Assembly (NCBI GenBank): GCA_963717745.1
Contig: CAVQXJ010000011.1
Coordinates: forward strand, 26,948 to 90,947
Length of the DNA stretch: 64,000 bases
Direction of reading: 5' to 3'
From: an uncultured Acidobacteriota bacterium
GTDB taxonomy: Bacteria; Acidobacteriota; Vicinamibacteria; Vicinamibacterales; 2-12-FULL-66-21
Part shown: positions 1,153 to 61,856 of the stretch, one piece after another
How positions within the stretch are numbered: position 1 is the first letter of the stretch
Layout of the letters: the number at the start of each line of letters is the position of its first letter
Made by a program: the position numbers and the translations under genes
Notes under the pieces: generated by a model
Seen by the model: the letters and a program-made list of their open reading frames with translations, nothing else
The model's database searches: none
Told to the model about the DNA's origin: nothing

Positions 1153-1304
1153 GTCAAATCCCAAGCTTCAAGCTCCAAATCCCAACCACTCCCAACTTCC
1201 AAATCCCAAAAGGAACTCCCACCTTCCAAATTCCAATGAACTTCCCATTGGGATTTGGGAGTTGGGCGTGGTTGGAGCTTGGGATTTGGAGCTTGGGATT
1301 TGAC
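1153..1304. repeat. palindromic intergenic element, family A (CCAA/TTGG heptamer-array arms)
   Basis: A ~57-nt C/A-rich left arm (gtcaaatcccaagcttcaagctccaaatcccaacc...) faces its imperfect reverse complement (...ggttggagcttgggatttggagcttgggatttgac) around a ~38-nt loop. 1268..1301 is identical over 34 nt to 61821..61854. Confidence 0.85.
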
Positions 1305-1311
1305 ACAACCC

Positions 1312-1350
1312 TTGACAAACGGATTACTAAATACTAAATACTTAGTAATG
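1312..1350 (+). promoter_or_regulatory. candidate sigma70-type promoter plus BlaI-type dyad operator overlapping the blaI-like start codon
   Basis: TTGACA (1312..1317), 17 nt spacer, TAAATA (1335..1340). An AT-rich island attactaaatactaaatacttagtaat carries the dyad tactaa-atac-ttagta (1332..1347) and an outer dyad attactaa/ttagtaat. The ATG is at 1348. Confidence 0.4.
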
Positions 1351-1725
1351 AGATCCGCGCACCCCACCCTGACCCCGCACGAGCTGGCGATCATGAAGAT
1401 CGTCTGGCGGCTCGAGCGGGCCACCACCCGTGACGTCTACGAGGCGCTGCGCGAGCGGCGCGACATCGCCTACACCACGGTGATGACCATGATGAAGATT
1501 CTCGAGGAAAAGAAATACCTCAAGAAGACGCAGGTCGATCGCGCCTATGAATACCGCCCCGCCAAACCCCATCAGCAGGTGATCGGCGCGATGGTGCGGG
1601 ACTTCCTGGATCGGGTGTTCGACGGGGCGGCCACCCCGCTGCTCGTCCATCTCGCCAGGGATCGCAAGCTGTCGAAGGCCGACAAGGAAACCATCCTGCG
1701 GATGACCGAGGAGATCGACGAATGA
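1348..1725 (+). CDS. BlaI/MecI/CopY family transcriptional repressor
   Basis: From Met 1348: MRSAHPTLTPHELAIMKIVWRLERATTRDVYEALRERRDIAYTTVMTMMKILEEKKYLKK, a winged-helix penicillinase-repressor pattern. The stop overlaps the start of the M56 gene (ATGA at 1722). The track extension 1255..1347 runs through repeat A1 and is rejected. Confidence 0.9.
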   Translation: MRSAHPTLTPHELAIMKIVWRLERATTRDVYEALRERRDIAYTTVMTMMKILEEKKYLKKTQVDRAYEYRPAKPHQQVIGAMVRDFLDRVFDGAATPLLVHLARDRKLSKADKETILRMTEEIDE

Positions 1726-3560
1726 CCCCGCTGCCGCTGGGCAACCTGATCGCGTGGAGTGTGCAGGTCGCGCTGATCGTCGGAGTCGGGCTCGCCGCGC
1801 TCTGGCTGGTCCGGCTCGAGGCGCCGGCGGTGCGGTACGTGCTCCTTCGCGCGCTGCTCGTGATCTGCCTCGCGCTGCCGTTCGTGCAGCCGCGCATCGC
1901 ACTCCAACGCCCGGCTGTCTCCCCGGCTGCACCGGCCGCCGCGGTGGACGTCTCCACGGGCCTTTCAACCGGCGCTGCACCGGCCGCGCGGGCGGCCTGG
2001 CTCCCTTCAGATGCGGCGGTGGTGGCCGCGGTGATCGGCGGCGGCGCATTGCTGCGGCTGCTCTGGATCGTGGCGGGCATCGCCAGGCTGCGGAGGCTGC
2101 GGCGTGCCGGCGTCATCGCGGACGCTTCGCGCGATCATGACGAGCTGCAGCGGGTGATCACCGGGCGCGCGACGATCCGCTATGTGCCGGGGCTCGGCCA
2201 GCCGGTGACCTTCGGCTTTCAGTCGCCGGTGATTCTGCTGCCGTCCGCGGTCCGGGATCTGCCGATCCCGATCCAGCGGGCCGTGCTCGCGCACGAGCTC
2301 TGGCACGTGCAGCGCGCCGATTGGCTGTCGACGTTGTGCGAAGAAGCGGTGCGCGCTCTGCTTTGGTTCCATCCCGCGGTCGGCGCACTCGTCTCGCGGA
2401 TTCAGGCGGCGCGCGAAGAAGTGGTCGACGAGCTGGCGATTCTGACCACCGGCTCGCGGCGGACCTATGTGAATGCCCTGCTCGCGTTTGCTGATGCCCC
2501 CTCTTCAGTGGCCGCCCCCGCGTTCGCGCGCCGCCGGCACCTGGTTCGCAGGCTCGTACTGATTTCCAAGGAGGTTGTGATGTCCGGAAGACGCGTGGTC
2601 GTGAGCGCTGCGGCAGTCGGCGCCCTGGTCCTGGGCAGCGCCTGGTATTCGGTCCAGGCCTTTCCGATGCGGGAGCAGCAGCCCCCAGCGGACAGCCTGC
2701 GCAGCGTACCGGGGCCGGTCGAGAGTCAAGCCCGGCCCATCACTCCTGAGAATCCAGTTCCGCGGCGAACCTACAGCGTGCCGGCCGCGGATCCCGCGGT
2801 GATGCCCGCCGGATCGGCCGGGACGGTCACCGTGCGGCTGATCCTGGACGAAACCGGACACGTCGCCGAACAGCGCATCGCGGGAGTGACGCTGCGGCAG
2901 AACGATGGCTTCACGGTGAACCTCCCCAGGCCAACTCGAGAGAGTCTCGACTGGTATGAAGCGGGGGACCTATCGAGGATCGGCGGGGGTGCAAGCACTC
3001 TCGATGCAGCCTGCGGCGGAGGTCGTCGAGGCGATGATGGATTCTGCCGTGCGGGCGGTCACGCAATGGCAATACGCGCCGCCTGAGGATGGTCCCATCG
3101 CCTTTGACGTGGTGCTGCGGTTTGGCGCACCGCCACCTCCGCCGCCCCCCCTCCCCCGGGGACGCGCGCCTCGGGCCGGTCGATGCCGCCACCTCCGCCC
3201 CCCCCGCCCGCGACCAGTCCACGCCCCGGCATGCTTTCGGCACCGGCACCCCCGCCGGGCGCCGGCGACGACGGTGCGGTTCGCGTGGGCGGTGAGATCA
3301 AGGCCCCGATGAAGGTGAGGAACGTCAACCCTGTTTATCCGCAGGACGCGCAGACCGCGCGGGTGCAGGGGGTGGTGATCATCGAAGCGCGGATCGAGGC
3401 TGATGGCACGGTCGGCAGCGCCCGGGTGCTGCGCTCGATCCCGATGCTGGACGAGGCCGCCGTCGACGCGGTGCGGCAGTGGGAGTTCACCCCGACGCTG
3501 GTGAATGGCGTGCCTGTACCGGTCATCATGACCGTGACGGTGAATTTCACGCTTCAGTGA
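1722..3560 (+). pseudogene. BlaR1-like M56 metallopeptidase sensor fused to two TonB C-terminal-like domains; reading frame broken twice
   Basis: HELWHVQRAD (HEXXH) and the N-terminal TM segments are in frame 1722..3086. The end of a first TonB_C-like domain (AAEVVEAMMDSAVRAVTQWQYAPPEDGPIAFDVVLRF) appears only in the frame of ORF 2956..3312. After a poly-Pro linker, a second TonB_C domain (VRVGGEIKAP..YPQDAQTARVQGVVIIEARI..AAVDAVRQWEFTP) is in frame 3183..3560. The frame switches fall at G5 runs (~2953-2988) and at C7-C8 runs (~3143-3204). Confidence 0.65.
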
Positions 3561-3569
3561 GGCGGGCGG

Positions 3570-3651
3570 GGAGGGTGTCAGGCAGTGAATCGTGAACGAA
3601 GGCGGGGCCTGACACTTGCCTTCGTTCACGATTCACTGCCTGACACCCTCC
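3570..3651. terminator. 34-bp perfect-stem palindrome between convergent genes; the right arm supplies the last codons and stop of pepT
   Basis: ggagggtgtcaggcagtgaatcgtgaacgaaggc (3570..3603), then a 13-nt loop, then the exact reverse complement (3617..3651, one extra unpaired 5' t). No T-tract. The arm contains the tandem units gtgaatc/gtgaacg. Confidence 0.55.
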
Positions 3652-5865: not shown

Positions 5866-5959
5866 AACTGCGAGCGGTCACCACGCGATCTGCAAGGACA
5901 TCGGGCGAAAAGACCGGCCGGTTCCGGGCCCATCTCTTGCTCCGGGAGAGATACCCATC

Positions 5960-6592
5960 ATGTCAGACAGGGAGACCTTCGGACCCCGGTTGCGCAGCGA
6001 GCGTGAGCGCCGCGGCATTTCACTGGAGACCATTGCCACGGTCACCAAAGTGAGCGCGGATCTGTGGGATGGCCTCGAGCGCAATGATTTTTCGCGCTGG
6101 CCCACCGGAATCTTCGCCCGTGCCTTCGTTCGCGACTACGCGAAAGCGGTCGGACTCGATGCCGACGAAATCGTCGACGAGTTCTGCCGGCTGTTCGCGA
6201 TCGGCGACCGCCGGGCGGAACGGGTGATCAAGGCGCAGGGAGCACTGATTGGGCACGCCGTCACCCTCGACGGGTCGATGGTGCCACCGACCGGCGACCG
6301 TCGCGTCATTGCCCGCATCAAGCAGGAGCAGGCCCGGGCGCGCCGCATCCGCCTCGCCCCGCGCACGGTCGCGGCCGGAATCGACACCGGCGTCGCCCTC
6401 TTCGCCACCGCCGGCGTGTCGATGGCGCTCAATACCGGCTTCTGGACCACCGCCGCCGCGCTCGGCCTCGCCTACTACGGCGTCTCAACCATCGTCCTGG
6501 GCACGACCCCGGGCAGCAAGGCCGTCGACGCGCTCCGCCACCGTCTCCCGACGCTGTTCGCCGTCCACGATCGCCGCGCGCACGCGGCGTGA
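5960..6592 (+). CDS. helix-turn-helix (RodZ/XRE-like) membrane-anchored protein
   Basis: FGPRLRSERERRGISLETIATVTKVSADLWDGLERNDFSRWP is an HTH_25-like N-terminus. Hydrophobic segments follow at the C-terminus. Confidence 0.7.
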   Translation: MSDRETFGPRLRSERERRGISLETIATVTKVSADLWDGLERNDFSRWPTGIFARAFVRDYAKAVGLDADEIVDEFCRLFAIGDRRAERVIKAQGALIGHAVTLDGSMVPPTGDRRVIARIKQEQARARRIRLAPRTVAAGIDTGVALFATAGVSMALNTGFWTTAAALGLAYYGVSTIVLGTTPGSKAVDALRHRLPTLFAVHDRRAHAA

Positions 6593-6720
6593 GTCTCTTC
6601 GGACGCCTGTTCGCTGTCACGCTGCAATCGTGATCACGGCGCCTGCGGCGCGCTGGCGCTTCGTCCGCCTTCGCGCGAAGCGCTTCGGCAAGACCTAGCC
6701 GTTCCCCGCCGAAGGCGGCG
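6591..6720. repeat. arm-less fragment related to the element at 56775..57050
   Basis: It shares agtctcttcg (6592..6601 = 56841..56850), gctgcaatcgtg (6621..6632 = 56960..56971) and the 22-mer cctgcggcgcgctggcgcttcg (6642..6663 = 56779..56800). It contains its own hairpin ccgccttcg...cgaaggcgg. Confidence 0.6.
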
Positions 6721-6789
6721 TGACACGCGACCGGTGTTCAATCCAGCACCAGCCTCGGCTTAGCACCGCGGCTGGTGTCTAATCCTTCC

Positions 6790-9700
6790 ATGCGGCACTA
6801 CGCGTGGCTTCTTGTGCTCCTCAGCGCGTCCCCGGCAGCGGCGCAGACAAGTGCTCCCTCACTTCGTGTCCTCAGCGCCGGGCCGACCGGCGAGATAGCG
6901 ACCCTCTCCGAGGCCAACGAGATACGGGTGGTCTTCTCGGAGCCGATGGTGGCGGTGGGCCGCATCCCCGAGCGCGTGGTGGCGCCATTCTTTCGTGTCA
7001 CGCCGGCAATCCCCGGGGCGTTCCGCTGGTCAGGCACGACCATCCTGATCTTCACGCCGGACGCGAAGCGTCCGCTGCCTTACGCCACCAAGTTCGACGT
7101 CACCATCGATCCCGGCGCCACCGCGGTCAGCGGCCGGCGGCTCGCGCGCGTGCATCGGTTCAGCTTCACGACGCCGACCGTCCGCCTCTTGAACACGAAC
7201 TGGTATCGCCGCGGCGGTCGCGCTGGAGCGCCAATGGTGATCCTGCTGCGCTTCAACCAGCCGGTCCGGCCGGCCGACGTCGCTCCCCACATCGCGGCCC
7301 GGCTCCAGCAGCACGACTGGGACGTGCCGGGGCTCACCCCTGAAGGTATCGAGCGGCTGAAGACGATCGATCCGTCGGCCGTCCAGCGCTTCAACGCCAA
7401 GGTGACGGCCACGGCGGCCGTCACGAAGTCGACCGCGCCGGTCGCGCTTCGGCTCACGACCGACTGGGACAAGAAGCAGACTCCGCCGGCGCGCGATCTG
7501 GTCGTCTTCGAAACGACGACGGCGGTCGCGCCGGAGGCGTGGGTGCGGGTCGCGGTTCTTCCGACGGTGCCGTCGCCCGCGGGCCCGGAGAAGCCGCGCG
7601 GCGAGACCGAATATGTGATCAAGGTGGAGCGCGCCTTCTTCGTCGACGGATTCCACTGCAGGCAGGCCTGCCCGGCCGACCTCGGGAACCACGTAAGCTT
7701 CCGCGGCCTGGTCGACGCGAAAGCGTACGCGTCTGCGACCCAGGCCGCGCAGGCGACGGCGCCAGGCCGGTTCGTGCCCGTGGCCAAGCTCCCGGTTCCG
7801 CATCCGCGGCCCAGTTGGGCGCTGGACGAGGCCCCGAGTTTCTCGCTCGAGGACGCCGGGTTCGATCGGCAACCACCGGCGCAGACGTTCAGCGTCACCA
7901 TCGACGGATCGCTGCGTGCCGCCGACGGTCAGACGCTCGGCTACACCTGGGCCGGCTCTGTCGAGAACTGGCACGAGCGGGCGTTCACCAGCTTTGGCGA
8001 CGGCCACGGCGTCTGGGAGCGGGGCGCCGGACTTCAGCTGCCGTTCTACGCGCGTAACATGCGCGGCATTACGCAGTGGTCGCAGCGCGTGCCGCTTCCC
8101 GATCTCGTGCCGATGGTCGTCCGCCTGCAGCCGGACACCATGGAAGGTGGTTTCCGGCAGTTCAGCGAGACACCGGCGTCGCCGGGACAGAACCGGCGGC
8201 TCAACGTCACGCCTGACCGCATCCAGTCGCACGGCTTCGATCTGTCGCCGGTGCTCGGCTCGTCCGACACCGGCCTGGTGTGGGCCGCGATCCGTGAAGG
8301 CGATCCGATCGAACGCGCGGTCCCGCTGTCCGACAGCAACGACGTCAAGACCCGCTCGACGATCGTCCAGGTCACGAACCTCGGACTCTCGGTCAAGGAC
8401 AGCCCGCAGAACACTCTCGTGTTCGTCACGCGGCTGGACACCGCTGCACCGGTGCCGGCCGCCAGAGTCTCGATTCTCAACCTGAAGAATCAGACGGTGT
8501 GGAGCGGCACCACCGCCGCCGACGGCGTCGCGGTCGCCCCGAAAACACCCACCCTGCGCGACCCGGAGCGGTGGTGGAGGCTGTCCTTCGTCGTCACCGC
8601 AGAAAAGGACGGTGACGTCGCGTATGTCGGCAGCGATTGGACAGAAGGGATCACGCCTTGGGAGTTCGGGTCGCACTTCGACCTGAATCAGGCGCAGCCG
8701 ATGCTGCGTGGCACGGTCTTCACCGACCGCGGCGTCTATCGGCTCGGCGAGGAAGTGCGATTGAAGGCCATCCTGCGCCACAACACGCCGCAGGGGATCC
8801 GGTTGCTGGCTGCCGGGACCAGCGTGCTGCTCTCGGTGCGCGACGGTCAGGATCGGCTGATCGCGGAACGCGCCGTCACCGTGAATGCCTGGAGCAGTGC
8901 GGAGTGGGCGCTGACGCTGCCAGCCGAAGGCAACCTCGGCTCCTATTCGGTCCGCGCCATCCTCGAGAGCGACAAGCCGGTCGCGAAAAAGCCCGAGGAG
9001 CTGCGCCCGGGCGACGAGCCCGGGCCGGGTGCCGACGATGAGGTGGCTTACGAGAAGGTGGTGCGGGCGTCGTTTCTGGTGGCGGCGTACCGCAGGCCGG
9101 ACTTCCGCGTCGACGTGAAGCTGACGAGCGCGTCGGCCAAGGCCGGCGACCCGGTGAAAGCCGTGGTCTCAGCGAAGTACCTGTTCGGCGCGGCGATGCC
9201 GGTGCGGCCGGCGACGTGGACCTGGACGCGGTCGCCCGCAAGCGCGGCGCCGGCCGCGGTGTATGACGCGCTGCCCGACGGCGACCGCTGGGAATTCGTC
9301 GGTTCGGTCGAGCGCGACCCAGACCAGTCGCCGGTGATGAGCCGGGAGGCGAAGACCACCAAGATCGGCGAGCTGAGTCTGGACCTGCCGACCAGACTCG
9401 ATGCCGGCGTGCCCTACCTCTACACGCTCGAGGCGGATGTCGAGGACGTGTCGCGCCAGCACATCGCGAACCGCGCCACCGTGACCGTCCATCCCGCCGA
9501 CTGGTACATCGGTGTCCGCCGGCCGAACTACTTCATCGATCAGAAGGCAGGTCTCAAGACTGAAGTGGTCAGCGTCACGCCGACCGGTCAGGTGATCGCC
9601 GGGGTGCCCATCGAGATCAAGCTGACGCAGGTGCAGTGGAACAGCGTCCGACGCGCCGAAGGCAACGGGTTCTACACGTGGGAGACGGAGAAGAAGCGAG

Positions 9701-12700
9701 TGCCCGCCGGCTCCTGGACGGTGACGAGCGGTGCCTCGCCGGTGCCGTTCGAAGCCACGCTCGCCAACGGCGGCTATTTCGAGCTCGAGGCGACCGCCCG
9801 CCAGGAGTCCGGCCGCTACGCGGTGACCACGACGTCGTTCTATGTGCTCGGCTCCGGCTACACCGCCTGGGAGCGTTTCGATCACAATCGCATCGAGCTG
9901 GTCGGCGACAAGCCGCGCTACAAGCCGGGCGACACCGCCCGGATCATGATCCAGTCCCCCTGGGAGCGCGCCACCGCGCTGGTCACGACCGAGCGGGAAG
10001 GCATCCGCTCTCACCGGCAGTTCACGCTGACCTCGACCCAGCAGTCCGTCGACATTCCGGTTACGGAAAACGACATCCCCAACCTGTTCGTCTCGGTGCT
10101 GCTGATCAAGGGCCGCACCGTCGTCGCCGCGGCCCCTACCGAGGGGCCAACCGGCGGCCCTTACGCGATAGCGGATCCGAGCGATCCCGGCAAGCCCGCG
10201 TTCCGCCTGGGCTACGTCGACCTGCAGGTCGAGGATGGCAGCCGGCGGCTGACCGTCGGGGTGACCGCGAATCGCGAGGAATACCGGCCGGCAACCGACG
10301 CGCAGGTGAGGGTGCGGGTTGCGGATGTGCAGGGGAAGCCCGTGCAGAGTGAAGTCACGCTCTGGGCGGTGGACTACGGGGTCCTGTCGCTCACCGGCTA
10401 CCGGACGCCGGATGTGCTCGGCTCCGTCTACGTCCACAAGGCGCTGCAAGTCACCAACACCGACAGCCGGCAGCGCATCGTCAGCCGCCGGGTGCTGACT
10501 CCGAAGGGTGACGCCGAAGGCGGCGGCGGGGGAGTCGACGGCGGTGCGGTGCGGAAGGACTTCCGCGTGCTGGCGTTCTGGATTGGCTCGGTCGTGACGA
10601 ATGCCAATGGTGAGGCAACCGCCGACGTGAAGCTGCCGGAGTCGCTGACCACCTATCGCATCATGGCGGTCGCCGGCGATCGCGCGTCGAGGTTCGGCAA
10701 TGGCGACGCGGAGGTGCGGGTCAACAAGCCGCTGACGATGAAGCCGACGTTCCCGCGGTTCCTGGCGGTGGGGGACAAGGCGCTGTTTGGCGCGGTGGTC
10801 ACCAGTCAGCTCGCCGCCGCCGGCGATGCGACGGTCACGATTCGCAGCCTCGATCCCAACCTGCTGGTGCTCGACGGGCCGGCGGAGCTCACGCTGCCGA
10901 TCGCCGCCGGCGGATCGGTCGAAGCCCGGTTCGCGGCCGCCGCCAAGGCGATCGGACGGGCGCGGATCCAGATGACGGTCAAGCTCGGGAACGAGACCGA
11001 CTCGTTCGAGGACGTCATTCCGGTGGAAGTGCTGGCCTCGCCCGAGACCGTCGCCGCTTACGGGCAGCTCTCGGGTGCGACCGCGCGCGGAGAGGAGTCC
11101 TTGACCGTTCCGCAGGGCGTCGTTCCCGGGTTCGGCGGCCTTCATCTGGAGATGTCCTCGACGGCGATGGTTGGCCTGAGTGAGGGCGCCCGCTATCTGG
11201 TCGAGTATCCGTACGGGTGCGCGGAGCAGAAAGGGTCTCGAGCGCTGGCGATGGTGCTGGCGGCCGATCTCGGCGACGCTTTCTCGCTGCCGGGCGTGGA
11301 CACCACGAAGATGCGCCCCGCCGTGCAGCAGTCGCTGACGGAGCTGGAGCGGTTCCAGTGTCCCAACGGCGGCTTCACCTACTGGCCCGGGAGATGTCAG
11401 TGGACATCTGCCTACCTGACCAGCTATCTGCTCCATGTATTCAAGGTCGCCTCGGATCTCAAGTACCAGGTCGATCGCGGGATGCAGCAGCGCGCGTATG
11501 GCTATCTGGAGCGCGAGCTGGCGCTGCCGCCGCCCACCAACGAAAGCTGGTGGCCGGCGTACACCGCGTGGCAGGCGTTCGCGGTGAAGGTCATGGTCGA
11601 AGGCGGGCGCAATCAGGACTCGCACCTGACCCGCCTCTATGGCTATCGCGATCGCATGCCGGTGTTCGCGCTCGCCTACCTTCACGACGCGCTGCTGGCG
11701 AAAGGCGAGAAGTCGGGCACGCGAGTGGAGGAGATCCGGCGTCGCATGACCAACGCGGTGCTGCCCGAGGCCGGCTCCGCGCACGTCGAGGAGCTGAGCG
11801 ATCCCTATCTGTTGTGGTTCTGGAACTCGAACGTGCGGTCCACCGCGATCGTGCTCAATTCGCTGGTCAAGGCATCGGCGAGCGCCGACGAGATCCGGCC
11901 GATCGTCCGCTGGATGATGGCGGCGCGGAAGAACGGCCGCTGGGGCAACACCCAGGAGAACGCGCACGCGATGGAGTCGCTGGTCGCGTATTACCGCCGC
12001 TACGAGCCGACGGTCCCCGACTTCACCGGCGTCGCGCTGCTCGGCGAGCGGGTGGTCGCGCGTGAGCAGTTCAAAGGCCGGTCGACGCAGGCGTCGAGCC
12101 ACGATATTCCGATGACGGAGATCCTCGCGACCGGTCCGGCCGGGACCGCGCGTCCCGTGACGTTCACCCGCGACGGCGCGGGCACGCTCTTCTACACCGC
12201 GCGGATGCGGTACGCGGCCGACCAGCTGTTCCAGCAGGGGCTCGACAGCGGGATTCGCATCGAACGCATGTTCGCGCCCTACGTGGAGACTGGGACCCGT
12301 CCGGCGGCGACGTCGTACAAGGCGGGCGATCTGATTCGGGTCACGCTCACGCTGCGGCTGACCAAGGAGCGCCGGTTCGTCGCCGTCACGGATCCGCTGC
12401 CGGCGGGGTTCGAGCCGCTCGAGTCGTGGTTCGCGACCACGGCGAGGGCGATCGGCACCACCGAGCCGGATGCGGACGATCGCGAGTCGACCTGGGAGTC
12501 GGTGTGGGCGCGTGGCGGGTTCGATCACGTCGAACGGCACGACGACCGCGTCCAGTTGTTCGCGACGCGGCTGGCCGAGGGCCGCCACCAGTTCACCTAC
12601 GTCGTCCGCGCCACCACCGCGGGCACGTTCCGGACCGCACCGGCGCGGGCGGAGGAGATGTACGAGCCCGAGGTGTTCGGGCGAACCGCGACCGCGGTGA

Positions 12701-20785: not shown

Positions 20786-20946
20786 CGCGGGCTCGCGGTT
20801 CGGGGGCTCGCGGGCTCGGAGATCCGGGTTCTAGCCCCGACAAACCCAGTCGATCAGGTGGTGGTGCCGCAAGTTTCGGCCTCGGACCCGCTAGTTGCCC
20901 CGAACCGCGAACCCGCGAACCCGCCTTCGCGCTTCGCGCTACGGCG
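20786..20946. repeat. arm-core-arm palindromic element (CGCGAAC-type units) plus 27-nt shared header motif
   Basis: The left arm gggctcgcggttcgggggctcgcgggctcgg is roughly the reverse complement of the right arm ccgaaccgcgaacccgcgaacccgcc, around a ~77-nt core. 20920..20946 (cccgccttcgcgcttcgcgctacggcg) is identical to 48510..48536. Confidence 0.7.
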
Positions 20947-22994: not shown

Positions 22995-23355
22995 CGCGAG
23001 GCTTCGCCCGCTGGGACGAACGACATGTTTTCCGTTAGACGTAGGAATCCGGGTTTCGGGCTAGCTCCACCGCGGCTTTTTGGTGCATTGCCTCGGCCAG
23101 TCGGGCTTCACGCGGCGGTGCGGTGGGTACGGCGCGGGACGTCTGCTGCACTCGTCAGCCCGCCACCGCCCTTCGTCCCGCTCTGACGCGGTTCGTCCCT
23201 CGAAAGGAAATCAGCGGTCTTTTTGTTTCGCGATGCCCCGGACCGATTCCGGCCGCTGTTTTCTTTCGCACGCTGCCCGCTGCCGAACAGCAGCGTCCCG
23301 GGTGTGGGACGGCCGGCGCGGCCGGCGGTCGCTGCTCCCAGCGCCCCGATGGTCG

Positions 23356-23495
23356 CGGCGTCGGGATGCTTTCAGCGGCAAGCGGGGTGATTCGAGGGCC
23401 GGTGCGCTTCTGACAGGAGGGCAGGAGGACCAGAAAAACCACTGGTTTTTCGGTCCTCCTTTCCTCCTGTGATCGCGAGCGTCGCGCACTGCCCC
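23356..23495. repeat. palindromic intergenic element, family B (CAGGAGG units)
   Basis: Core hairpin acaggagggcaggaggaccagaaaaacc / ggtttttcggtcctcctttcctcctgt. The left end gcggcgtcgggatgctttcagcggc matches the ends of 41499..41675. The whole element aligns by eye to the reverse complement of 45742..45890. Confidence 0.8.
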
Positions 23496-23659
23496 GATCG
23501 CCACTCCAATTGCCCCGGAAGCTCGCGGCGTGGGCACTCTCTGTCGCGAATTGGCTGGTGCGATGGCTGGTGGATTTAACAGGACGACAGGAGAACGCAA
23601 CGACGCTCCACGTCATCAAGTCGTTGCAAACCACTGCGATCAAACGAGAATGCCGTATC

Positions 23660-25619: not shown

Positions 25620-25625
25620 TAGTCT

Positions 25626-25672
25626 TCAGTTTCCAGTAGCCAGTTTCCAGTTTGACTGCCAACTGGCTACTG
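25626..25672. repeat. hairpin element, family D (CAGTTTC/CAGTAGC heptamers)
   Basis: cagtttc cagtagc cagtttc cagtttg, then ..aactggctact. The stem is agtagccagtt/aactggctact. It lies between convergent speA and the M28 gene, and the M28 stop codon (25667..25669) is inside the right arm. Confidence 0.7.
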
Positions 25673-41465: not shown

Positions 41466-41498
41466 CGGCGTGGCAATTTCGCTCCTCGCTCTTGGCTC

Positions 41499-41675
41499 GC
41501 GGCGTCGGGGTGCTTTCAGCGGCGACTTGGGCCATTCGACGGCCTGCGAGCTTTACAGGAGGGCCAGGAGGTCAGGAGAAAAACTATGAATTTCCTCCTG
41601 ATCTCCTGGCCCTCCTGTAAAAAGCTCACCGGCCGTCGATTGGCCCATCCGCGTCTGAAAGCACCCCGACGCCGC
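41499..41675. repeat. family B element: 177-nt near-perfect palindrome
   Basis: The ~80-nt left arm gcggcgtcggggtgctttcagcggcgacttgggccattcgacggcctgcgagctttacaggagggccaggaggtcaggag is mirrored by 41593..41675. 41555..41578 is identical to 45767..45790, and 41593..41615 is identical to 45811..45833. Confidence 0.9.
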
Positions 41676-41722
41676 GAGGCAATGGGGCACTGGGGACGGC
41701 GACGGTGGCGTACAGTGGTCAC

Positions 41723-45682: not shown

Positions 45683-45741
45683 GACGTGGAGAGTAGTATC
45701 AAGATGATGCTAGTGTCAACGACGCTCGTGGAGTGGCGACC

Positions 45742-45890
45742 GGGGCACCTCGCGACGCCCGCGATCACAGGAGGGCCAGGAGGTCAGGAGGACCGAAAAA
45801 CAATTGGTCTTCCTCCTGATCTCCTGGCCCTCCAGTAAAAGATCACAGGCCATCGAATCACCCCGTTTGCCGCTGCGAGCGTCCGGATGC
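45742..45890. repeat. family B element, opposite orientation to 23356..23495
   Basis: Core hairpin gatcacaggagggccaggaggtcaggaggacc / ggtcttcctcctgatctcctggccctccagtaaaagatc. The right flank tcgaatcaccccgtttgccgctg is the reverse complement of 23371..23393. The left flank matches the reverse complement of 23463..23495. Confidence 0.8.
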
Positions 45891-45940
45891 AGCGAGTCAG
45901 CGGGGCGCTTGGAGTGGCGCCGGGCGGGAGGGCCCGGACG

Positions 45941-47711
45941 TCACGGTGCGGGTGAGGCGCGGAATTCCGAGGGAGCGGCGAGTGGGTCCGGCGTTCTCGG
46001 CATGCCCGCCAGCGCTTCGCTGAGTTGGAACCCCTGGAAGATGGCCTGCGGATCCTCTTCCTCGAACCGCATTCCGGCCATCGCCGTCAGGACCCGTTTG
46101 CGGTACCACACGAGGAGCTGCGCGGCGAACGTGGCGGCCACGCAGAACCACACCAGCTTGCCGGGCCGGCTGGAGAGGGCCTGATCGATGGCCGCGAACA
46201 CCACCGTATAAATGAAAAACGCCAGGATGTAGAGCGGCCACAGCGCGAAGATGTGCGAGTTGCCGGGGAAATAGGTGCAGGCGAATGGGAGCTTGCCGCG
46301 TCCTCGGGACCAGCAGCTCGGTCATCAGGCGGCCCAGCACCCAGGTGAACGCCGCATGCGAGACGGCGACCGCGAGCGTCCAGAACACCAGCCCTTGTAA
46401 CAGTGCAAACATCGTAGTCGGCAGCACGACCAGCAGCAGCATGGCGTCGCGGGTGCCGGCGACGGCGGCTGCCCGATCGGCCGGCTCGCACACCCGGAAC
46501 ACCCACCGCGCCTTGGGCTCCGAGGGAATGGCGACGATCGCCCGCAGGGCGATGAGCAGCAGGAACTGCGCAATGAGCGGCATCGACATCATGGCCAGCC
46601 CCGGCCGCCACAAGCCCTCGCCGCCGTTGCGAAAGGCCACCGAGATCGCCGACGACAGGATCAGGGCGAGGGCAAATCCTCCGTACACCGCGAACATCAT
46701 CCGGTGGGTGCGGCTGCGCACCAGCGTTCGCACCATGAACCCGCGGACCGCGGCGGCCAGCGGCCGGTTCACCGTCCGCGACAGGCGGCGGTTGCGGGCC
46801 GCGCGCGCGACCAGCGAGGCCGAGGTTCTGGGGATCACGCCTTCGAGCGCGCGCTGCGACAGGCGCGTATAGCTGAACGCGTAGAGGCCTACCGCTGCCG
46901 CGGCCGCCCCAACTGTCACCTGCACGGCCAGCCGGGCCAGCACTTCCGTGCCTCCGTAGGCCGTACCCGCCAGCAGCTCGTAGAAGCTGAAGAACCATGT
47001 CGGCGGAACCGCCGACAATCGCGCGAGCCCCTCGTGGCTGGCCCCGCCGAGCCGCAGCGCCCGGCCGAGATCGGGCAGGAAGAACAACAGCTGCACCAGG
47101 CCGACCGCGAAGAGCACCTGGAAGGTGACCGAGGCCGCCTGCGCCGCCCGCCGCCCGAACGCCAGCAGCAGGAGACACTGCGCCGCGACCAGGGCGCTGA
47201 ACACGAACGTACACGCGAGCGCCACGGTCAGGAAATGCGCGCTGATCCCGTGGATCCTCGAGATCGGCGCGCCGAAGCCGGTCACGGTCATGCCGAAGAT
47301 AATCGACTGCAGCGTACACTGCGGTGTCGCGAAGAGCACGAAAACCCGGCCGAGCGATGCCAGCCGGGCGATCACGAAGCTGCGCGTCGGGATCGGCAGC
47401 ACGCCGAGGATCCGCACGTCCCGCCGATCGGGAAAGACCCCGTCCCAGATCACGAGCCCGACCACCCCGATGGCGATCATGGACAGCGTGATCAGGATCA
47501 GCCGGTCGGCATCGAACTCGGGTGCGAGCGGCACCGAGAATTGCGCCTTGGCGTACTTCTTCGGCATGAGGGTCGCGTACGCGAAGGTGGGCGTGGCGGC
47601 GAGCAGCATGCCCCAGATGACCAGCTGCACCTGCGGCAGCCCGTCGGGCATCAGATCGCTCTCGAACAGTCTGGAGAAGAAGGCGCGCGAGAGCAGTCTG
47701 ATCTGGTGCAC
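45941..47711 (-). pseudogene. polytopic permease partner of the adjacent ABC ATPase, one frame break
   Basis: ~12 hydrophobic segments in frame from GTG 47711 down to ~46300. Downstream of the break at ~46291..46305 the hydrophobic continuation KLPFACTYFPGNSHIFALWPLYILAFFIYTVVFAAIDQAL..WFCVAATFAAQLLVWY is in the frame of ORF 45941..46204. The nominal frame turns into an Arg/Pro-rich tail. Confidence 0.65.
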
Positions 47712-48509: not shown

Positions 48510-48739
48510 CCCGCCTTCGCGCTTCGCGCTACGGCGCGGCAGTCCGTGGTCCGTGGTCCGCGGCCCGTAGTCCGTTCAGAGTCAATCGAACGATCGGGGT
48601 GAAAGACATCGCGATCAGCTGGTTGCCGCGCCTCTGCCCCGCCGCGCCGGGGGGCTCGACCCGGACCACGGGCTACGGACCACGGACCACGGACCACGGA
48701 CCACGGACCACGGACCACGGACAGCGGACTGCGGGCTAC
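48510..48739. repeat. arm-core-arm element with GGACCAC heptamer microsatellite arms (5 vs 11 units) and shared 27-nt header
   Basis: The header 48510..48536 is identical to 20920..20946. The left arm 48542..48576 is gtccgtg gtccgtg gtccgcg gcccgta gtccgtt. The core is ~86 nt. The right arm 48663..48739 is 11 heptamers (7 exact ggaccac plus gggctac, ggacagc, ggactgc, gggctac). It ends 10 nt before ATG 48749. Confidence 0.9.
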
Positions 48740-48748
48740 AATCCCCCC

Positions 48749-49210
48749 ATGTATCCGACCGTTCTCCTCCTGCACTCCTGGATTCGATGGGCCGTGATTC
48801 TGCTCGGCCTGGTGGCAACCCTCCGGGCGATCTCGGGCTCGATGAGCGGGCGCTCGTGGCTGCCGGCCGACGCACGGATCAGCCGGATCTTCGTCGGCCT
48901 GCTCGATCTGCAGATGATGGTCGGGCTGGGGCTCTACTTCGCGCTCAGCCCGATTACCAAGGCGGCGCTGTCGGACTTCGGCGGCGCGATGAGCCAGCCG
49001 ACGATGCGCTACTGGGCGGTCGAGCACGTGGTGGGAATGGTGGTCGGCATCACGCTGGCGCACGTCGGTGTCGCGCGCGCCGGCCGCACCCCGGACGGTG
49101 CGCTCAAGCACCGGCGTATCGCGACGTTCTTCGTCCTTGCGCTGATCGCGATTCTCGCGTCGGTGCCCTGGCCCGGAACTCCGAACGGCCGGCCGCTCAT
49201 CAGGTGGTGA
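48749..49210 (+). CDS. four-TM membrane protein, function unknown
   Basis: From ATG 48749: MYPTVLLLHSWIRWAVILLGLVATL.. with four hydrophobic segments. It ends 4 nt before the S9 peptidase start. The track extension 48455..48748 runs through the repeat. Confidence 0.6.
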   Translation: MYPTVLLLHSWIRWAVILLGLVATLRAISGSMSGRSWLPADARISRIFVGLLDLQMMVGLGLYFALSPITKAALSDFGGAMSQPTMRYWAVEHVVGMVVGITLAHVGVARAGRTPDGALKHRRIATFFVLALIAILASVPWPGTPNGRPLIRW

Positions 49211-49214: not shown

Positions 49215-51273
49215 ATGACTCGCGCACGCCCCGTAGCTGCCGGTACGGCCGTCGCCGCCGTCGCTGCGACGCTGCTGCTGTCGGCCGCGGTTCCGCGCGC
49301 GCAGAGCAGCCGGCCGATGATGCTGGACGATCTGCTGTCAGCCGTGAGAATCGCCGACCCGCAGTTGTCCCCCGACAGCCGCACGGTGGTCTATGTGCGC
49401 ACCACCACTGACCTGCCGTCGGGCCGCCGGAATGCGGATCTGTGGAGCGTGCCGGCGGACGGCGGGACGGCCAAGCTGCTGATCGGCGGTGACAAAGCGG
49501 AGAACACGCCCCGGTGGAGCGCCGACGGGCGGCGCCTCCTGTTCATCTCGACCCGGGACGGCGCGGCGCAGGTGTTCGTCGCGGACGCCGATGGCACCGG
49601 CATCAGGAAGATCACCGATCTCGCGATGGGTGTGCAGCCCCCGTTGATCGCGTCGCCGGACGGGACCAGGATCGCGTTCGTCTCCGACGTCTACCCCGAG
49701 TGTGCGGACGAGGCCTGCAACAAGCGCCGGAAAGAGGAAATCGAGAAGAACCCGGTCAAGGTCCGCCGGCTCACCCGTCTCCTGTCGCGGCATTGGGACG
49801 AATGGCGCGAGAACGTGCGTCACCATGTGATGGTGGCCGACGTCGAGTCCAAGCGGGTCGTCGACGTCACACCCGGCGACTTCGATTCGCCGCCGGGCCA
49901 GCAGGAGGACGCGGCGATCGCGTTCTCACCGGACGGCCGTGAGATCGCCTTCGTCTCGAACCGCGAGGGCAACGACCGCGAAGCCTGGACCACCAACAAC
50001 GACGTGTGGATCGTCGCCGCGACCGGCGGCGCCGCGAAGAAGCTGACGCCGGGCGCCGGTGCCGATGTGCAGCCGGTGTTCTCGCCGGACGGCCGCACCA
50101 TCTTCGTGCGCGCGCAGCGGCGCGGCGGGTTCGAATCCGACCGCTGGTATCTCGACGCGTACGATCGCGCCAGCGGGCAGAAGCGCACCCTCTTCGAGGC
50201 ACCCGATCTCTCCGTCGGCGACTTCGCGCTGTCGAAGGATGGCACGGCGATCTGGTTCACCGCCGCGGATCAAGGCCGTGAACACCTGTATACCCTGCCC
50301 GCCGCGGGTGGCACGCCGAAACGGATCGCCGAAGGCGGCGCGATCGGCGCGCCGCGCCCCGGCAGCGGCTTCGTGGTGTTCTCGAAATCGTCGCTCGTGT
50401 CACCCCCGGAAATCTTTCGCGTCGCCGCCACCGGCGGCAGCGAGAAGGCCCTCACGACGGATGGGGCGAAGCTGGCGGGCGAGGTGGCATTCACACCGCC
50501 CGAGAGCCGGAGCGTCAGGGGCGGCGCCGGGGCCACCGTGCAGTACCTGGCTGATCAAGCCCCCCAACTTCGATGCCTCGAGGAAATATCCCGTCGTCTT
50601 CCTGATTCACGGCGGACCGCAAGGCGCGTGGGAGGATGCCTGGTCGACGCGGTGGAATCCTTCCCTGTGGGCGGCTCAGGGCTGGGTGATCGCCGCGCCG
50701 AATCCGCGCGGGTCGACCGGGTTCGGCCAGAAGTTCGTCGACGAGATTTCGAGCGACTGGGGCGGCAAGGTGATGGCCGACATCGATGCGGTGGTGAACG
50801 AGGTGTCGAAGCTGCCGTTCACCGACTCGACCCGCATGGGCATCGCCGGCGCCAGCTACGGAGGCTACGCCGTCAACTGGATCCTGGGTCACACCAACCG
50901 GTTCAAGGCCGCGGTGACCCACGACGGCGTGTTCAACCTCGAGTCGATGTCGCTCGCGACCGAAGAGTTGTGGTTCACCGAGTGGGAGTTCGGCGGACCG
51001 CCGTGGGCGTCCAAGGCGCGCGAGCAGTTCCTGCAGTGGTCGCCGCACCTGTTCGCCCACAACATCAAGACGCCGACGCTCATCATCACCAACGAGCTCG
51101 ATTTCCGCGTGCCGGTCGACCAGGGCCTGCAGATGTTCACCGTGCTGCGGCGCAACGGCGTCCAGGCCGAAGCCCTGGTCTTTCCGGACGAGGGGCACTG
51201 GGTGCTTGGCGCGAACAACAGCCGCGTATGGCACGAGGCGGTGTTCGGCTGGATGACGAAGTATCTGCAGTAG
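49215..51273 (+). pseudogene. S9 family serine peptidase (TolB-like propeller + prolyl-oligopeptidase alpha/beta hydrolase), one frame break
   Basis: The propeller (PRWSADGRRLLFIS..SPDGTRIAFVS..) is in frame 49215. After ~50546 (cag tac c tgg ctg) the catalytic domain WLIKPPNFDASRKYPVVFLIHGGPQG..GASYGGY..FPDEGHW is in the frame of ORF 50059..51273. Confidence 0.8.
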
Positions 51274-51278: not shown

Positions 51279-51347
51279 TTGTCAGTGTCCCAGTTCCCAG
51301 TTACTGGCAGACTCGCTACTGGGAACTGGCCACCGGAAACTGACTGC
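51279..51347. repeat. hairpin element, family D (CCCAGTT heptamers)
   Basis: gtcagtgt cccagtt cccagtt actggcagactcgct actgggaactgg ccaccggaa actgac. It lies between convergent genes. ccagttcccagt differs by 1 nt from ccagtttccagt in 25626..25672. Confidence 0.6.
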
Positions 51348-51361
51348 GAAGAAACGGACGA

Positions 51362-52267: not shown

Positions 52268-52304
52268 AATCCCTAATCCCTCATCCGATGAGGGATTAGG
52301 GATT
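52268..52304. repeat. 37-nt perfect palindrome built from AATCCCT heptamers
   Basis: aatccct aatccct catc c gatg agggatt agggatt. It is preceded by a second hairpin gcggcccc..ggggccgc (52232..52259). It lies in the divergent gap between the DUF4097 gene and the ADOP-type permease. Confidence 0.75.
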
Positions 52305-56085: not shown

Positions 56086-56088
56086 CAG

Positions 56089-56724: not shown

Positions 56725-56774
56725 TCGGGAATTTTACGGGAAGCTGGCCTATTCGTGGCGTCGGCGGCCCTTAC

Positions 56775-57050
56775 GGCCCCTGCGGCGCGCTGGCGCTTCG
56801 CGCCAGGACGAGACGACGACACGACGACCACGACGTTGAGAGTCTCTTCGACGGGTTGGGCCCGTTGGCGGCGCCGCGCAACGCCGGCCGTGGCCGGCGT
56901 CGCCGCCAACGGGGGAGAGCCGCTGATATTCAGCCGGGGCACAAAGGATTTGGCCGAGCGCTGCAATCGTGGCCGGGCGTGAATCGTAAAACGTCGTTGT
57001 CGTCGTGTCGTCGTCGTGTCGTCGTAGGGCCGCAGGCAGCCGCAGGCCCC
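56775..57050. repeat. arm-core-arm element with ACGACG/GTCGTCG-type arms, nested palindromes
   Basis: Outer cctgcggc../..gccgcagg. Arms are gacgagacgacgacacgacgaccacgacgt (56807..56836) and aacgtcgttgtcgtcgtgtcgtcgtcgtgtcgtcgt (56990..57025). The ~150-nt core has an internal dyad gttggcggcg..acgccggcc gt ggccggcgt..cgccgccaac. It shares three blocks with 6591..6663. Confidence 0.85.
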
Positions 57051-57131
57051 CCGCCGGAGGCGCCGTGGGCACGATCGCAGCGTGACAGCGAACACCCCCA
57101 CGAAGAGACTCCCCTGACTTATCATCTTGGG

Positions 57132-58522: not shown

Positions 58523-58527
58523 GAGCC

Positions 58528-58557
58528 GGATGAAAGCCACGCGGGGGTCTTTCATCC
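58528..58557. terminator. stem-loop between convergent genes
   Basis: ggatgaaag (58528..58536), 12-nt loop, ctttcatcc (58549..58557). The ggatgaaa..ccccgcg motif also heads family C copies at 56091 and 30121 (reverse complement). Confidence 0.45.
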
Positions 58558-58569
58558 GCCCAGTAGTCC

Positions 58570-61227: not shown

Positions 61228-61289
61228 CTCAGTGATCCTCTGACACCAGCTTCATGGCCTGCTCCCGCACCCGCCTCACGGCGGGGCAT

Positions 61290-61628
61290 CTACGCGGACT
61301 CGAGCACCTGTTGGATGGCGCCGATCAGCCGCTGGAACTCCTTGCGCTCGGCGGCGAGCCGCTTGCGTCCGGCCGCGGTCACGGTGTAGTAGCGGGCCCG
61401 GCGGTTGTTCTCGGACGCGCCCCATTCGCCGCTGACCCACCCGTTCACCAGCAGCCGCTGCAGCGCTGGATACAGCGAGCTCTCGCCGACCACCAGCACG
61501 TCATCCGAGACCAGGCGGATCCGCTCCGCGATCGCATAGCCGTGCAGCGCGCCGCGGCCGAGCGTCCGCAGAATCAGCATGTCGAGGGTGCCGGGCAGCA
61601 AATCCGGCGGTTGATTGGTGACGCCCAT
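61290..61628 (-). CDS. PadR family transcriptional regulator
   Basis: LLPGTLDMLILRTLGRGALHGYAIAERI..ESSLYPALQRLLVNGWVSGEWGASENNRRARYYTVTAAGRKRL. Confidence 0.9.
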   Translation of the reverse strand: MGVTNQPPDLLPGTLDMLILRTLGRGALHGYAIAERIRLVSDDVLVVGESSLYPALQRLLVNGWVSGEWGASENNRRARYYTVTAAGRKRLAAERKEFQRLIGAIQQVLESA

Positions 61629-61632
61629 CTCT

Positions 61633-61655
61633 CTCCCATCGTTAGACGATGGGAG
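61633..61655 (-). promoter_or_regulatory. 9-bp perfect dyad immediately upstream of the PadR start, containing the likely RBS
   Basis: ctcccatcg ttaga cgatgggag. On the coding strand it reads ..ctcccatcgtctaacgatgggagagagATG, so the GGGAG Shine-Dalgarno-like block is one arm of the dyad. Confidence 0.4.
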
Positions 61656-61662
61656 TATAGAT

Positions 61663-61856
61663 CAAAATCCCAAGCTCCAAGCTCCAAATCCCAACCACGC
61701 CCAAATCCCAAGCTCCAACCACTCCCAACCCCCAAATAGCAATCGGAACTTCCAAACCGCCGGCAGCGAGGGGTTGGGCTTTGGAAATGGGAATTTACAT
61801 TTGGGACTTGGGGGTTGGGAGTGGTTGGAGCTTGGGATTTGGAGCTTGGGATTTTG
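61663..61856. repeat. palindromic intergenic element, family A
   Basis: The ~75-nt C/A-rich left arm (caaaatcccaagctccaagctccaaatcccaaccacgcccaaatcccaagctccaacc..) faces a T/G-rich right arm. 61821..61854 is identical to 1268..1301. It fills the whole gap between the tldD-like stop and the PadR upstream dyad. Confidence 0.85.

Follow-up and report, generated by a model that had tools for sequence, protein, structure and literature searches.

Foldback repeats built from heptamer arrays in the intergenic DNA of a Vicinamibacterales genome

Introduction

What fills the gaps between the genes of a compact bacterial genome, and does it stay where it arose or move? We take up this question for a stretch of 64,000 nucleotides (nt) from a member of the Vicinamibacterales (Acidobacteriota; GC about 67%, range 64-71%), hereafter the window, whose non-coding gaps contain short palindromes that are often made of seven-nucleotide units. 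A sequence-only reading of the window had proposed that nearly every intergenic gap carries such an element, that the inverted arms of each element are tandem arrays, that at least six families are present as dispersed repeats, and, by implication, that the architecture was new.

The answer that we consider rather likely is that several families of non-coding dispersed repeats, 40-220 nt in length, have colonised the gaps, and that they are non-autonomous foldbacks of slippage-prone heptamers, akin to MITEs (transposable elements of the miniature inverted-repeat type) and to repetitive extragenic palindromic (REP) sequences. The individual elements are designated by family (A to D) or, when the unit was seen at a single locus, by S1 to S5 (Table 1).

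Results

Periodicity, hairpins and dispersal in the window

Genes were mapped with a codon-usage model trained on the window's long genes, and the intergenic set consists of 31 curated gaps with a total of 4,822 nt, or 7.5% of the window. The fraction of matching bases at lag 7 in this set is 0.336, as compared with 0.269 in shuffled sequence (z = 10.1). The signal returns as a harmonic at lag 14 (z = 6.1) and has shoulders at lags 6 and 8. The autocorrelation of the window's coding DNA shows period 3 only. The period of seven that had been suspected in intergenic DNA clearly exceeds its shuffled control.

Hairpins were located by an ungapped scan (score of at least 16, span of at most 420 nt), with four block-shuffled copies of the window as controls. 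The scan yields 10 strong hairpin clusters, all 10 of them intergenic, as compared with none in each of the four shuffles. Relative to dinucleotide shuffles, the predicted RNA folds of A1, A2, B1 to B3, C1, D1, D2 and S1 to S5 are 4 to 21 standard deviations more stable, and six elements folded as single-stranded DNA have z-scores from -4.8 to -15.5. Comparing the window with itself by BLASTN, we find two copies of family A (54 nt at 94%), three of family B (78-83% over 90-190 nt) and four of family C (41-49 nt at 90-98%). Together with the absence of hairpins from the shuffles, these matches bear out the view that families A to C are dispersed repeats and not chance hairpins. Tests of single arms give significant tandem structure for A, C, D, S1 and S5 (p <= 0.02), and the head-to-tail 7-nt unit that defines heptanucleotide repeats is found in the window and in its relatives. 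Rfam 15 contains no family that matches at its gathering score; in E-value mode the search returns only sub-threshold matches to generic models of eukaryotic microRNA hairpins.

The sequence-only reading is confirmed in kind and must be corrected in extent. The inverted repeats that it described do exist where it placed them, but the listed elements occupy 16 of the 31 gaps, which is about half and not nearly all. Of its six or more families, A, B and C are dispersed by the self-comparison, whereas D1 and D2 share no significant similarity by BLASTN and so do not form a family on this test. Inverted arms made of tandem arrays are indeed a common architecture, yet not a general one: C2, C3 and C4 consist of a single-arm array beside a small hairpin, GCGGGG..CCCCGC, and have no palindromic fold, and neither the arms of S4 nor the outer arms of B2 are tandem.

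A trait of the lineage

The window's speA gene, which encodes arginine decarboxylase, supports the assignment to Vicinamibacterales, its product being 85-95% identical to proteins of metagenome-assembled genomes (MAGs) labelled Vicinamibacterales or Acidobacteriota; the host had already been judged Acidobacteria-like from its letters. Relatives were sampled through their speA loci, 80 in number and 1.39 Mb in total, which were picked without regard to repeats. Labels such as L002 or L205 denote loci retrieved from related genomes, metagenome contigs or GTDB genomes.

The same hairpin scan finds 114 hairpins in the 80 loci. Most have visibly heptameric arms, and their units are very different from one another (for example CAGTCGN, GATTGNN, ACGGAGAC, AGCTNNC, GGCTCAG, GCGAGGG and GGGTTCAAG). 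In the 189 kb of predicted non-coding DNA of these loci, Tandem Repeats Finder (TRF) reports 140 arrays of period 7; periods 6, 8 and 9 account for 5, 40 and 25 arrays, respectively. In their 1.2 Mb of coding DNA it reports 23 arrays of period 7. The 140 non-coding arrays represent 86 different canonical heptamers, and 92 of the 180 arrays with period 7 or 8 have an inverted partner within 500 nt. Thus, the basic phenomenon is one of non-coding heptamer arrays, about half of them arranged as foldbacks, and it belongs to the lineage and not to the window alone.

Further loci in related contigs also contain members of families B, C, S1/S2, S3 and S4. In the GTDB species genomes, neither an exact 23-mer of family C nor a degenerate pattern of the family B outer arm has any match, and to judge by these patterns both families appear to be confined to the window's species group.

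Family A and its spread across phyla

Family A has the units TTGGGAT and TTGGAGC. One of its 20-mers is present in at least 120 soil-metagenome contigs, and among the copies listed about 85 are palindromes of 120-190 nt with variable interiors and unrelated flanks. Common to these is an imperfectly periodic end of some 45 nt, (G)TCAAATCCCAAGCTCCAAATCCCAAGCTCCAAC(G)CACTCCCAAC. Since conserved, imperfectly periodic ends occur in unrelated flanks, the copies have a common source, and independent slippage at each site is ruled out. Family A therefore resembles a MITE family, its many copies being non-coding, dispersed and bounded by inverted ends that are conserved; within the loci examined, no gene is enclosed by a pair of such ends.

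The left arm of a copy matches its own right arm to the same degree as it matches the right arms of other copies (score 30.8 versus 30.7, median rank 27 of 60). It follows that the arms decay independently from a palindromic consensus, and the equality of scores rules out co-evolution of the arms within a copy, whether by structure-driven compensatory change or by conversion between arms. An extra outer inverted module, TAGTGGACTGTTCCGGTCATTTGCAGAG, is carried by 13 family A copies and is absent from the window; a likeness of this module to the left flank of A1 was rejected, being merely the C-terminal codons of the upstream gene.

In the GTDB species genomes (596 Gb), in which we calculate that roughly one match would arise by chance, the 20-mer occurs in at least 83 stretches. 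Its hosts comprise many Verrucomicrobiota, several Acidobacteriota, Planctomycetota, Chloroflexia, one member of the Burkholderiales, Elusimicrobia and Omnitrophota, and also Bacteroidota of 41-46% GC, including the cultured Salinimicrobium nanhaiense and Luteirhabdus pelagi. Hairpins contain 51 of the 88 GTDB matches listed. Judged by these identical 20-mers in several phyla, family A is a test case for horizontal movement. Phages are no obvious vector, since the 20-mer has a single match among 2.9 million viral contigs, and we reject a phage origin. A search of literature text for family A 14-mers gave one match only, an unrelated primer.

Two further observations concern the hosts of the 20-mer. 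One Nitrospirales genome (L218, L227, L229, L232, L237, L242, L269, L271, L272, L283) contains a different repeat, longer than 150 nt (..AACCCAAGGATCGAAAGGCGTGTTCCCCGGTTGTTGGTTCGTGGTTCAGGACGGCTTGGGATTTGGAGCTTGGGCGTGTTTCCGGAGCGCC..) and highly multi-copy there, in which the family A 20-mer is incidental. Several loci of Bacteroidota with 37-46% GC (L213, L215, L234, L263, L277, L284) have several heptamer or 9-10-mer arrays, with units such as TAGTGAT, GTGAAGA, TCATTGATGG and GATACTGTG, beside TTGGRRY arrays; the multi-family heptamer habit is therefore not limited to GC-rich Acidobacteriota.

Turnover at orthologous sites

Comparison of related genomes at single sites reveals both presence and absence of elements, in the gap 3' of speA and in the slot before blaI. 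In the closest relatives (L033, L008, L002, L038, L043) the former contains almost nothing, and the site of D1 is empty in L033, L008 and L002. The clade of L004, L014, L015, L016, L018, L027 and L028 has orthologous foldbacks of AGCTNNC units there, with 3-9 units per arm, which start within the speA stop codon (TAGCT...AGCTA). Other genomes have unrelated heptamer units in this gap, a few of them as one-sided arrays. On the 5' side of speA, where the window has B1, foldbacks that reach about 430 nt are present in many relatives; their arms measure 100-180 nt and their cores 200-250 nt.

The slot before blaI is bounded by the final codon of the upstream gene and by the blaI -35 box. A BlaI protein 100% identical to the window's is encoded on four other contigs, with flanks 95-98.6% identical, and the slot holds a 152-nt family A element in the window, a 57-nt family A element in L205, a family C element in L202 and L203, and a shorter family C element in L204. 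With A and C alleles in one slot between near-identical flanks, two unrelated families alternate within what amounts to one species. From its sequence, the L205 element looks like an internal deletion of A1. A2 is nearly identical in L206, a strain 96% identical to the window, and its ortholog in the more distant L159 is 147 nt long, with an identical right end of 60 nt and a different interior and left arm. Filled and empty sites among relatives, a further property of MITEs, are represented by the D1 site and by the blaI slot with its A or C alleles.

Some other features of these two loci should be distinguished from the repeats. The sequence TACTAAATACTAAATACTTAGTA at 1318-1347, just 5' of blaI, is a period-7 array by TRF, and it is kept in all strains whichever element is present; situated beside the TTGACA -35 box, it looks like a BlaI/MecI-type operator and does not belong to family A. 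A motif GT(C/G)TGTAT(C/T)ATG..CGTGA is conserved right before the aligned speA start (L027, L018, L036, L052, L033; ~9960-10010), 3' of large foldbacks, and by its place may be a speA leader or regulatory element. Many speA loci (e.g. L005 11953-12400, L017 11956-12420) have an extra small minus-strand gene between speA and the gene for an M28 peptidase, which the window and L033 lack.

Position relative to genes

The gaps that contain family A copies are tandem in 31 cases, convergent in 23 and divergent in 3, against a baseline from the same loci of 538, 178 and 292; divergent gaps account for 3 of 57, as compared with 29% of the baseline. Family A copies lie at a median of 11 nt from the upstream stop and other hairpins at a median of 6.5 nt, with 3-10 nt in convergent gaps; distances to downstream starts are larger. 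The elements do sit at gene ends, as had been noted, with medians of 3-11 nt from stop codons. The further suggestion that an element supplies the stop codon does not survive in the case of D1: the speA frame enters D1 because of a frameshift near the 3' end of the window's speA, and the stop homologous to that of the relatives is the TGA at 25617-25619, 6 nt 5' of D1.

Sites that combine a hairpin with a run of T number 6, 17 and 13 in 60 kb, against shuffled expectations of 7.9, 10.6 and 7.6, and they lie mostly inside genes. Given where the hairpins stand and how they are predicted to fold, they probably act at the 3' ends of transcripts, terminating them or blocking exonucleases, and in both directions between convergent genes. 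The terminator-like hit within C1 (15218-15232, with a TTTTT tail) looks, by its sequence, like the intrinsic terminator of the PBP1C gene.

The elements of the window and their surroundings

The elements are collected in Table 1.

Table 1. Repeat elements of the window, with their position, structure and supporting measurements.
Element	Position	Structure and setting	Measurements
A1	1153..1304	152-nt foldback, arms of CCCAA-type heptamers AAATCCC/AAGCTCC; 4 nt 3' of the stop of an Exo_endo_phos gene, 5' of the blaI promoter	self-BLASTN, hairpin scan; RNA fold -89.3 kcal/mol, z -11.2; arms at lag 7, p = 0.002
A2	61658..61861	204-nt foldback between two minus-strand genes	RNA z -10.7
B1	23335..23508	~175 nt, central hairpin with CAGGAGG-like arm units; divergent gap, ~160 nt 5' of speA	78% to B3 over 188 nt, inverted; RNA z -6.0; tandem signal marginal
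B2	41492..41682	191-nt near-perfect palindrome; outer 60-nt arms non-repetitive, inner arms (CAGGAGG)3	RNA -163.7 kcal/mol, z -20.7; outer-arm tandem test p = 0.66
B3	45729..45914	hairpin at 45767-45836	RNA z -8.3, DNA z -8.4
C1	15169..15238	23-bp stem, GGGAGAA/GGCAGAA units, followed directly by a T5 run	RNA z -11.8
C2	30087..30144	single-arm pyrimidine-rich array and small GCGGGG..CCCCGC hairpin; non-palindromic	RNA z -1.2; lag 7 p = 0.002
C3	37018..37062	single-arm purine-rich array	97.7% to C1 over 44 nt; RNA z -1.9
C4	56089..56139	single-arm array and small hairpin; occupies an entire 54-nt convergent gap	RNA z -1.2
D1	25626..25672	CAGTTTC-type hairpin; convergent gap 3' of speA	RNA z -6.2, DNA z -7.4
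D2	51279..51347	CCCAGTT-unit hairpin; convergent gap	RNA z -3.9, DNA z -4.8
S1	48539..48732	GGACCAC heptamer arms, 5 versus 9.4 units, ~85-nt core; divergent gap	lag-7 match 0.77-0.85; RNA z -4.8
S2	20786..20924	8-nt CGCGGGCT/CGCGAACC units in arms, ~80-nt core	
S3	56807..57025	GACGACG-type arm units (period 3/8/11), structured ~150-nt core; divergent gap	
S4	3570..3651	perfect palindrome, 34-nt arms; convergent gap	RNA z -15.4, DNA z -15.5; arm tandem test p = 0.86 (no signal)
S5	52268..52304	37-nt hairpin, AATCCCT/AGGGATT heptamers; divergent gap	DNA z -7.3; lag-7 match 0.92
27-nt module CCGCCTTCGCGCTTCGCGCTACGGCG	20920..20946 and 48510-48536	flanks S2 and S1	27/27 identity

C1 is the sole palindromic copy of family C in the window, and the inner arms of family B have a marginal tandem signal only. 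A copy homologous to B3 is present in the metagenome locus L112 and a relative of S3 in L107, and the arm units of S2 are found in L164, L114, L129, L081 and L109. S4, which has relatives in L021, L030 and L149, is grouped with REP-like hairpins that start with GGG(G/T)GTCAG. The arms of that family are not heptameric; its members start with GGGGTCAG(A/G), or with GGGTGTCAGG in S4, and those of the former type are found at L027 20472, L030 3834, L038 5739 and 14436, and L066 21256.

Two other repeats accompany the elements. The module CCGCCTTCGCGCTTCGCGCTACGGCG recurs in L169 (8 times), L175, L157, L201 and L188, the L169 copies including a tandem cluster at 8922-9093 with a spacing of about 36 nt; by this recurrence, it is evidently a separate repeat family that accompanies heptamer foldbacks. 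A repeat of about 75 nt, GAGTCTCTTCG...GCTGCAATCGTG...CCTGCGGCGCGCTGGCGCTTCG, is intact at 6591-6665 (in the 6593-6789 gap), while self-BLASTN links it to a split and inverted form around S3 (56773-56800 and 57040-57111), which suggests a nested insertion or rearrangement.

The genes themselves are ordinary chromosomal ones by Pfam (BlaI/BlaR1, an alpha-2-macroglobulin and PBP1C, MacB/FtsX-type permeases, two-component systems, IMP dehydrogenase, ferritin and others). Conserved genes have apparent frameshifts at the 3' end of speA (25590-25640), in the M28 peptidase (25667-27385), in an S9/PD40 peptidase (49215-51273) and in PmbA/TldD (61859-63485), and gene calls are fragmented in L206 too. 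These frameshifts are probably indel errors of long reads and not pseudogenes, and they create false overlaps between genes and elements. The codon model also proposes a candidate gene, an open reading frame of 203 codons (48599-49210) without a Pfam match, whose start lies inside the core of S1. Exact-protein look-ups returned no record for 5 of 7 window proteins, and when loci orthologous to the gene at 45897-47711 were sought, the sole match was one distant relative at 65% identity.

Discussion

How might such elements arise and spread? The base material is a degenerate tandem array of 7-nt, at times 8-nt, units, and in about half of the cases two inverted arrays enclose a short loop or a core of 80-250 nt, so that a long hairpin can fold either in RNA or in single-stranded DNA. 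On the account that we favour, slippage is the presumed source of the heptamers. New copies would descend from palindromic source copies and would arrive beside stop codons without target-site duplication, carried by a mobilising enzyme encoded outside the window. After arrival they would decay, the arms mutating separately, slippage adding or removing units, and material between the arms being deleted; entire elements are lost or swapped between strains. They would accumulate where a compact genome tolerates insertions, namely in the terminator slots right after stops. A missing target duplication and hairpin ends are what is expected of single-strand HUH/Y1 systems, such as IS200/IS605 and the REP-associated tyrosine transposases (REP-RAYT). 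The repeat families themselves, their period, dispersal, placement beside genes and turnover are observations; the mobilising enzyme, slippage as origin of the period and a part in termination are inferred.

It would be a considerable extension of this account, and one that we regard as rather unlikely, to see in the repeats a class of mobile elements that cross phyla horizontally, that are moved by an enzyme reading the hairpin itself (for example of the HUH/Y1 type), and that serve in addition as bidirectional terminators free of U-tracts in phyla where canonical terminators are scarce. An enzyme that recognises hairpins would explain why dozens of unrelated unit families share one architecture, and family A would then have reached Acidobacteriota, Verrucomicrobiota, Planctomycetota, Bacteroidota and Chloroflexota by horizontal transfer and not by convergence.

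Several results weigh against the favoured account of non-autonomous foldbacks. Pfam identifies no transposase, integrase or Y1/RAYT protein within the window, where the lack of a transposase had been noted before, and no autonomous partner element is seen in any retrieved locus. For 64 family A copies, the best direct-repeat lengths are equal to those of a shuffled-partner control, which gives no sign of target-site duplication; the elements are therefore unlike the classical MITEs of DDE transposases, and there is room for spread by recombination or gene conversion. A universal REP-like end motif was tried and rejected, TGWCA being near 14% of ends (2.8% at random) and GTCA near 19% (12%), a 1.6- to 5-fold enrichment that involves less than 20% of hairpin ends. 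About half of the relatives' arrays of period 7 or 8 are unpaired, and 4 of the window's 16 elements lie in divergent promoter gaps. A GC-rich hairpin with a direct U-tract, as in canonical terminators, is found in C1 only, the other element ends having no T-runs; and no single copy is essential, because close relatives lack an element at the same gene ends.

It is important, therefore, to ask whether the same patterns could arise otherwise. Hairpin terminators or bidirectional stabilisers of mRNA, kept by selection and heptameric only incidentally, would sit tight against stops, as the elements do; their enrichment in convergent and depletion in divergent gaps, their very stable folds, the T5 tail of C1, and the fact that hairpins with T-runs barely exceed the shuffled expectation and fall mostly inside genes all agree with such a role. 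We find this explanation doubtful nonetheless: the arms of a copy show no compensatory evolution, close relatives do without any element at the same gene end, a quarter of the window's elements (4 of 16) are in divergent gaps, and C2, C3 and C4 are unfolded. Alternatively, nothing need have moved. Slippage in place, with pairs formed by local fold-back duplication, would leave purely local simple-sequence repeats, and it would account readily for 86 units among 140 arrays, half of the arrays being unpaired, as well as for the AGCTNNC orthologs behind speA, which differ chiefly in unit number and variants, and for the internal unit changes between A2 and its L159 ortholog. Heptamers are, moreover, said to be the commonest long simple repeats, with polymerase slippage as the cause, in work related at second hand in PMC4679880. 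What makes a purely local origin unlikely is the imperfectly periodic family A end of about 45 nt, shared by at least 120 unrelated contexts and several phyla, together with the recurrence of B, C, S1/S2, S3 and S4 at other loci of relatives and the mutual replacement of A and C in one slot among strains 95-98.6% identical.

Functions that reside in the unit sequence can be judged by the units themselves. Were the elements structured non-coding RNAs or protein-binding arrays, either CsrA-type sponges of GGA motifs or arms mimicking a ribosome-binding site and its complement, then the family B unit CAGGAGG would be suggestive, for it resembles the CsrB repeat consensus, CAGGAUG. Of the units, 37% contain GGA where 25% would be expected, and 12% contain GGAG where 7% would be; over 86 units the GGA excess is about 2.6 standard errors, and we rejected this candidate enrichment as too weak. 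RNA-binding proteins have indeed been proposed for the TAACTGA heptamers by MacGregor (PMC4679880). The motifs here, however, are buried in long stems, the elements match no Rfam family, their orientation relative to genes varies, their presence depends on the strain, and the arms of a copy do not co-vary, all of which makes this explanation highly improbable. A regulatory role through G-quadruplexes or i-motifs, which has been suggested for GGGNATC repeats in Xanthomonas and Nostoc, is very unlikely in our view. In A, C, D2 and S5, each 7-nt unit does contribute a GGG tract to one of the strands, and similar units form quadruplexes in vitro (Rehm et al., PMC4692102); but most of the relatives' units have no G3 (AGCTTCC, CAGTCGT, GATTGCG, GGACCAC), GGG is found in 30% of units against 26% expected, and the complementary arm of a foldback competes with a quadruplex. 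Artefacts of long-read metagenome assembly, at which the apparent frameshifts in conserved genes might hint, have a negligible probability: the same families occur in independent short-read assemblies (k141_ and NODE_ contigs) from many samples and in the cultured isolates S. nanhaiense and L. pelagi, and the independent assemblies effectively refute this idea.

Few soil bacteria are as common as the Vicinamibacterales, which are known mainly from MAGs. Their intergenic DNA is dominated by fast-evolving heptamer foldbacks, which can break assemblies and confuse the calling of gene ends, as stops sometimes lie inside elements. Because the elements vary within a species from strain to strain, their use as strain markers is conceivable. 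The data connect two kinds of repeat that have been treated as separate, the heptamer simple repeats (short tandemly repeated repetitive sequences, STRR, and long simple sequence repeats, LSSR) and the palindromic dispersed elements (REP and MITE), and the 20-mers of family A offer a concrete test not only of horizontal movement but also of its agent. If the hairpins end transcripts, they would help to explain how 3' ends are formed in phyla poor in terminators made of a hairpin and a U-tract.

Comparison with known systems

In architecture alone, the elements recall the Foldback (FB) elements of Drosophila, in which a variable centre is enclosed by long inverted arms, themselves degenerate tandem arrays of short units, and in which the number of units sets the length. 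FB elements are eukaryotic and of kilobase scale; their insertion duplicates 9 bp of the target, and coding sequence is present in some of them. Bacterial MITEs such as Correia and Nezha are likewise non-coding (50-500 nt), with conserved inverted ends, many copies and strain-dependent presence. Here, in contrast, target duplications are lacking, the arms are tandem arrays, and no parent insertion sequence with matching ends is found in the loci examined.

REP sequences and bacterial interspersed mosaic elements (BIMEs) are extragenic multi-copy palindromes at the 3' ends of genes, without target duplication and variable among strains, and REPs are thought to stabilise mRNA or to end transcription (Di Nocera et al. 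2013, PMC3733652). Whereas REPs are palindromes of 20-40 nt with a conserved head, GTAG or CGTC, and an associated RAYT gene, the present elements are 40-220 nt long, contain tandem sub-repeats and have no shared head that we could find.

The STRRs of cyanobacteria, reportedly described by Mazel in 1990, and LSSRs are similar in that several heptamer families occur per genome, intergenic and dispersed, with 7 nt as the favoured unit length. In the strict sense STRRs belong to heterocystous cyanobacteria and have the units CCCCAGT, TTGGTCA and CAACAGT; host and units both differ here, and among the relatives a CCCCGGT/CCCCAGT array is found only in L040. STRR arrays are mostly direct, few being paired in Nostoc (PMC4692102), while half of ours are foldbacks, adjoin stops and belong to another host phylum. 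Direct repeats of the heptamer TAACTGA are common to Beggiatoaceae, Cyanobacteria and Bacteroidetes, with no evident route of transfer (MacGregor 2015, PMC4679880). They resemble family A in being shared across phyla, but they lie just 5' of starts, whereas our elements are mostly inverted pairs just 3' of stops.

Heptanucleotide arrays as such are reported to be the commonest long simple repeats in repeat-rich bacteria and have been explained by polymerase slippage (Mrazek 2007, as cited in PMC4679880). The closest precedent is found in Xanthomonas, whose GGGAATC arrays form 70-75 convergent inverted pairs per genome with the potential for stem-loops (Rehm et al. 2015, PMC4692102); those arrays lie within 50 bp of stops, seldom occur between divergent genes and differ among related genomes in the number of units (PMC4692102). 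Heptamer arrays and inverted heptamer pairs had thus been reported already (PMC4679880, PMC4692102), and the architecture is not novel in itself, contrary to what the first description of the window implied. The Xanthomonas repeats, too, are non-coding tandem heptamers in inverted pairs near stops, and inverted pairing (92 of 180 arrays here), proximity to stops and rarity in divergent gaps all have their counterpart in our data. They have a single consensus with G3, however, whereas we find no single GGGNATC unit but 86 units, that is, dozens of unrelated units per lineage, mostly without G3. The present elements differ further in their conserved non-periodic ends, in their non-repetitive cores and outer arms, in the exchange of whole elements and in having one cross-phylum family. 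What is new, then, is the host phylum, the many unit families in one lineage, the single family across phyla and the fact that families replace one another in a single slot among strains of a species, along with composite elements that have non-periodic conserved ends and cores.

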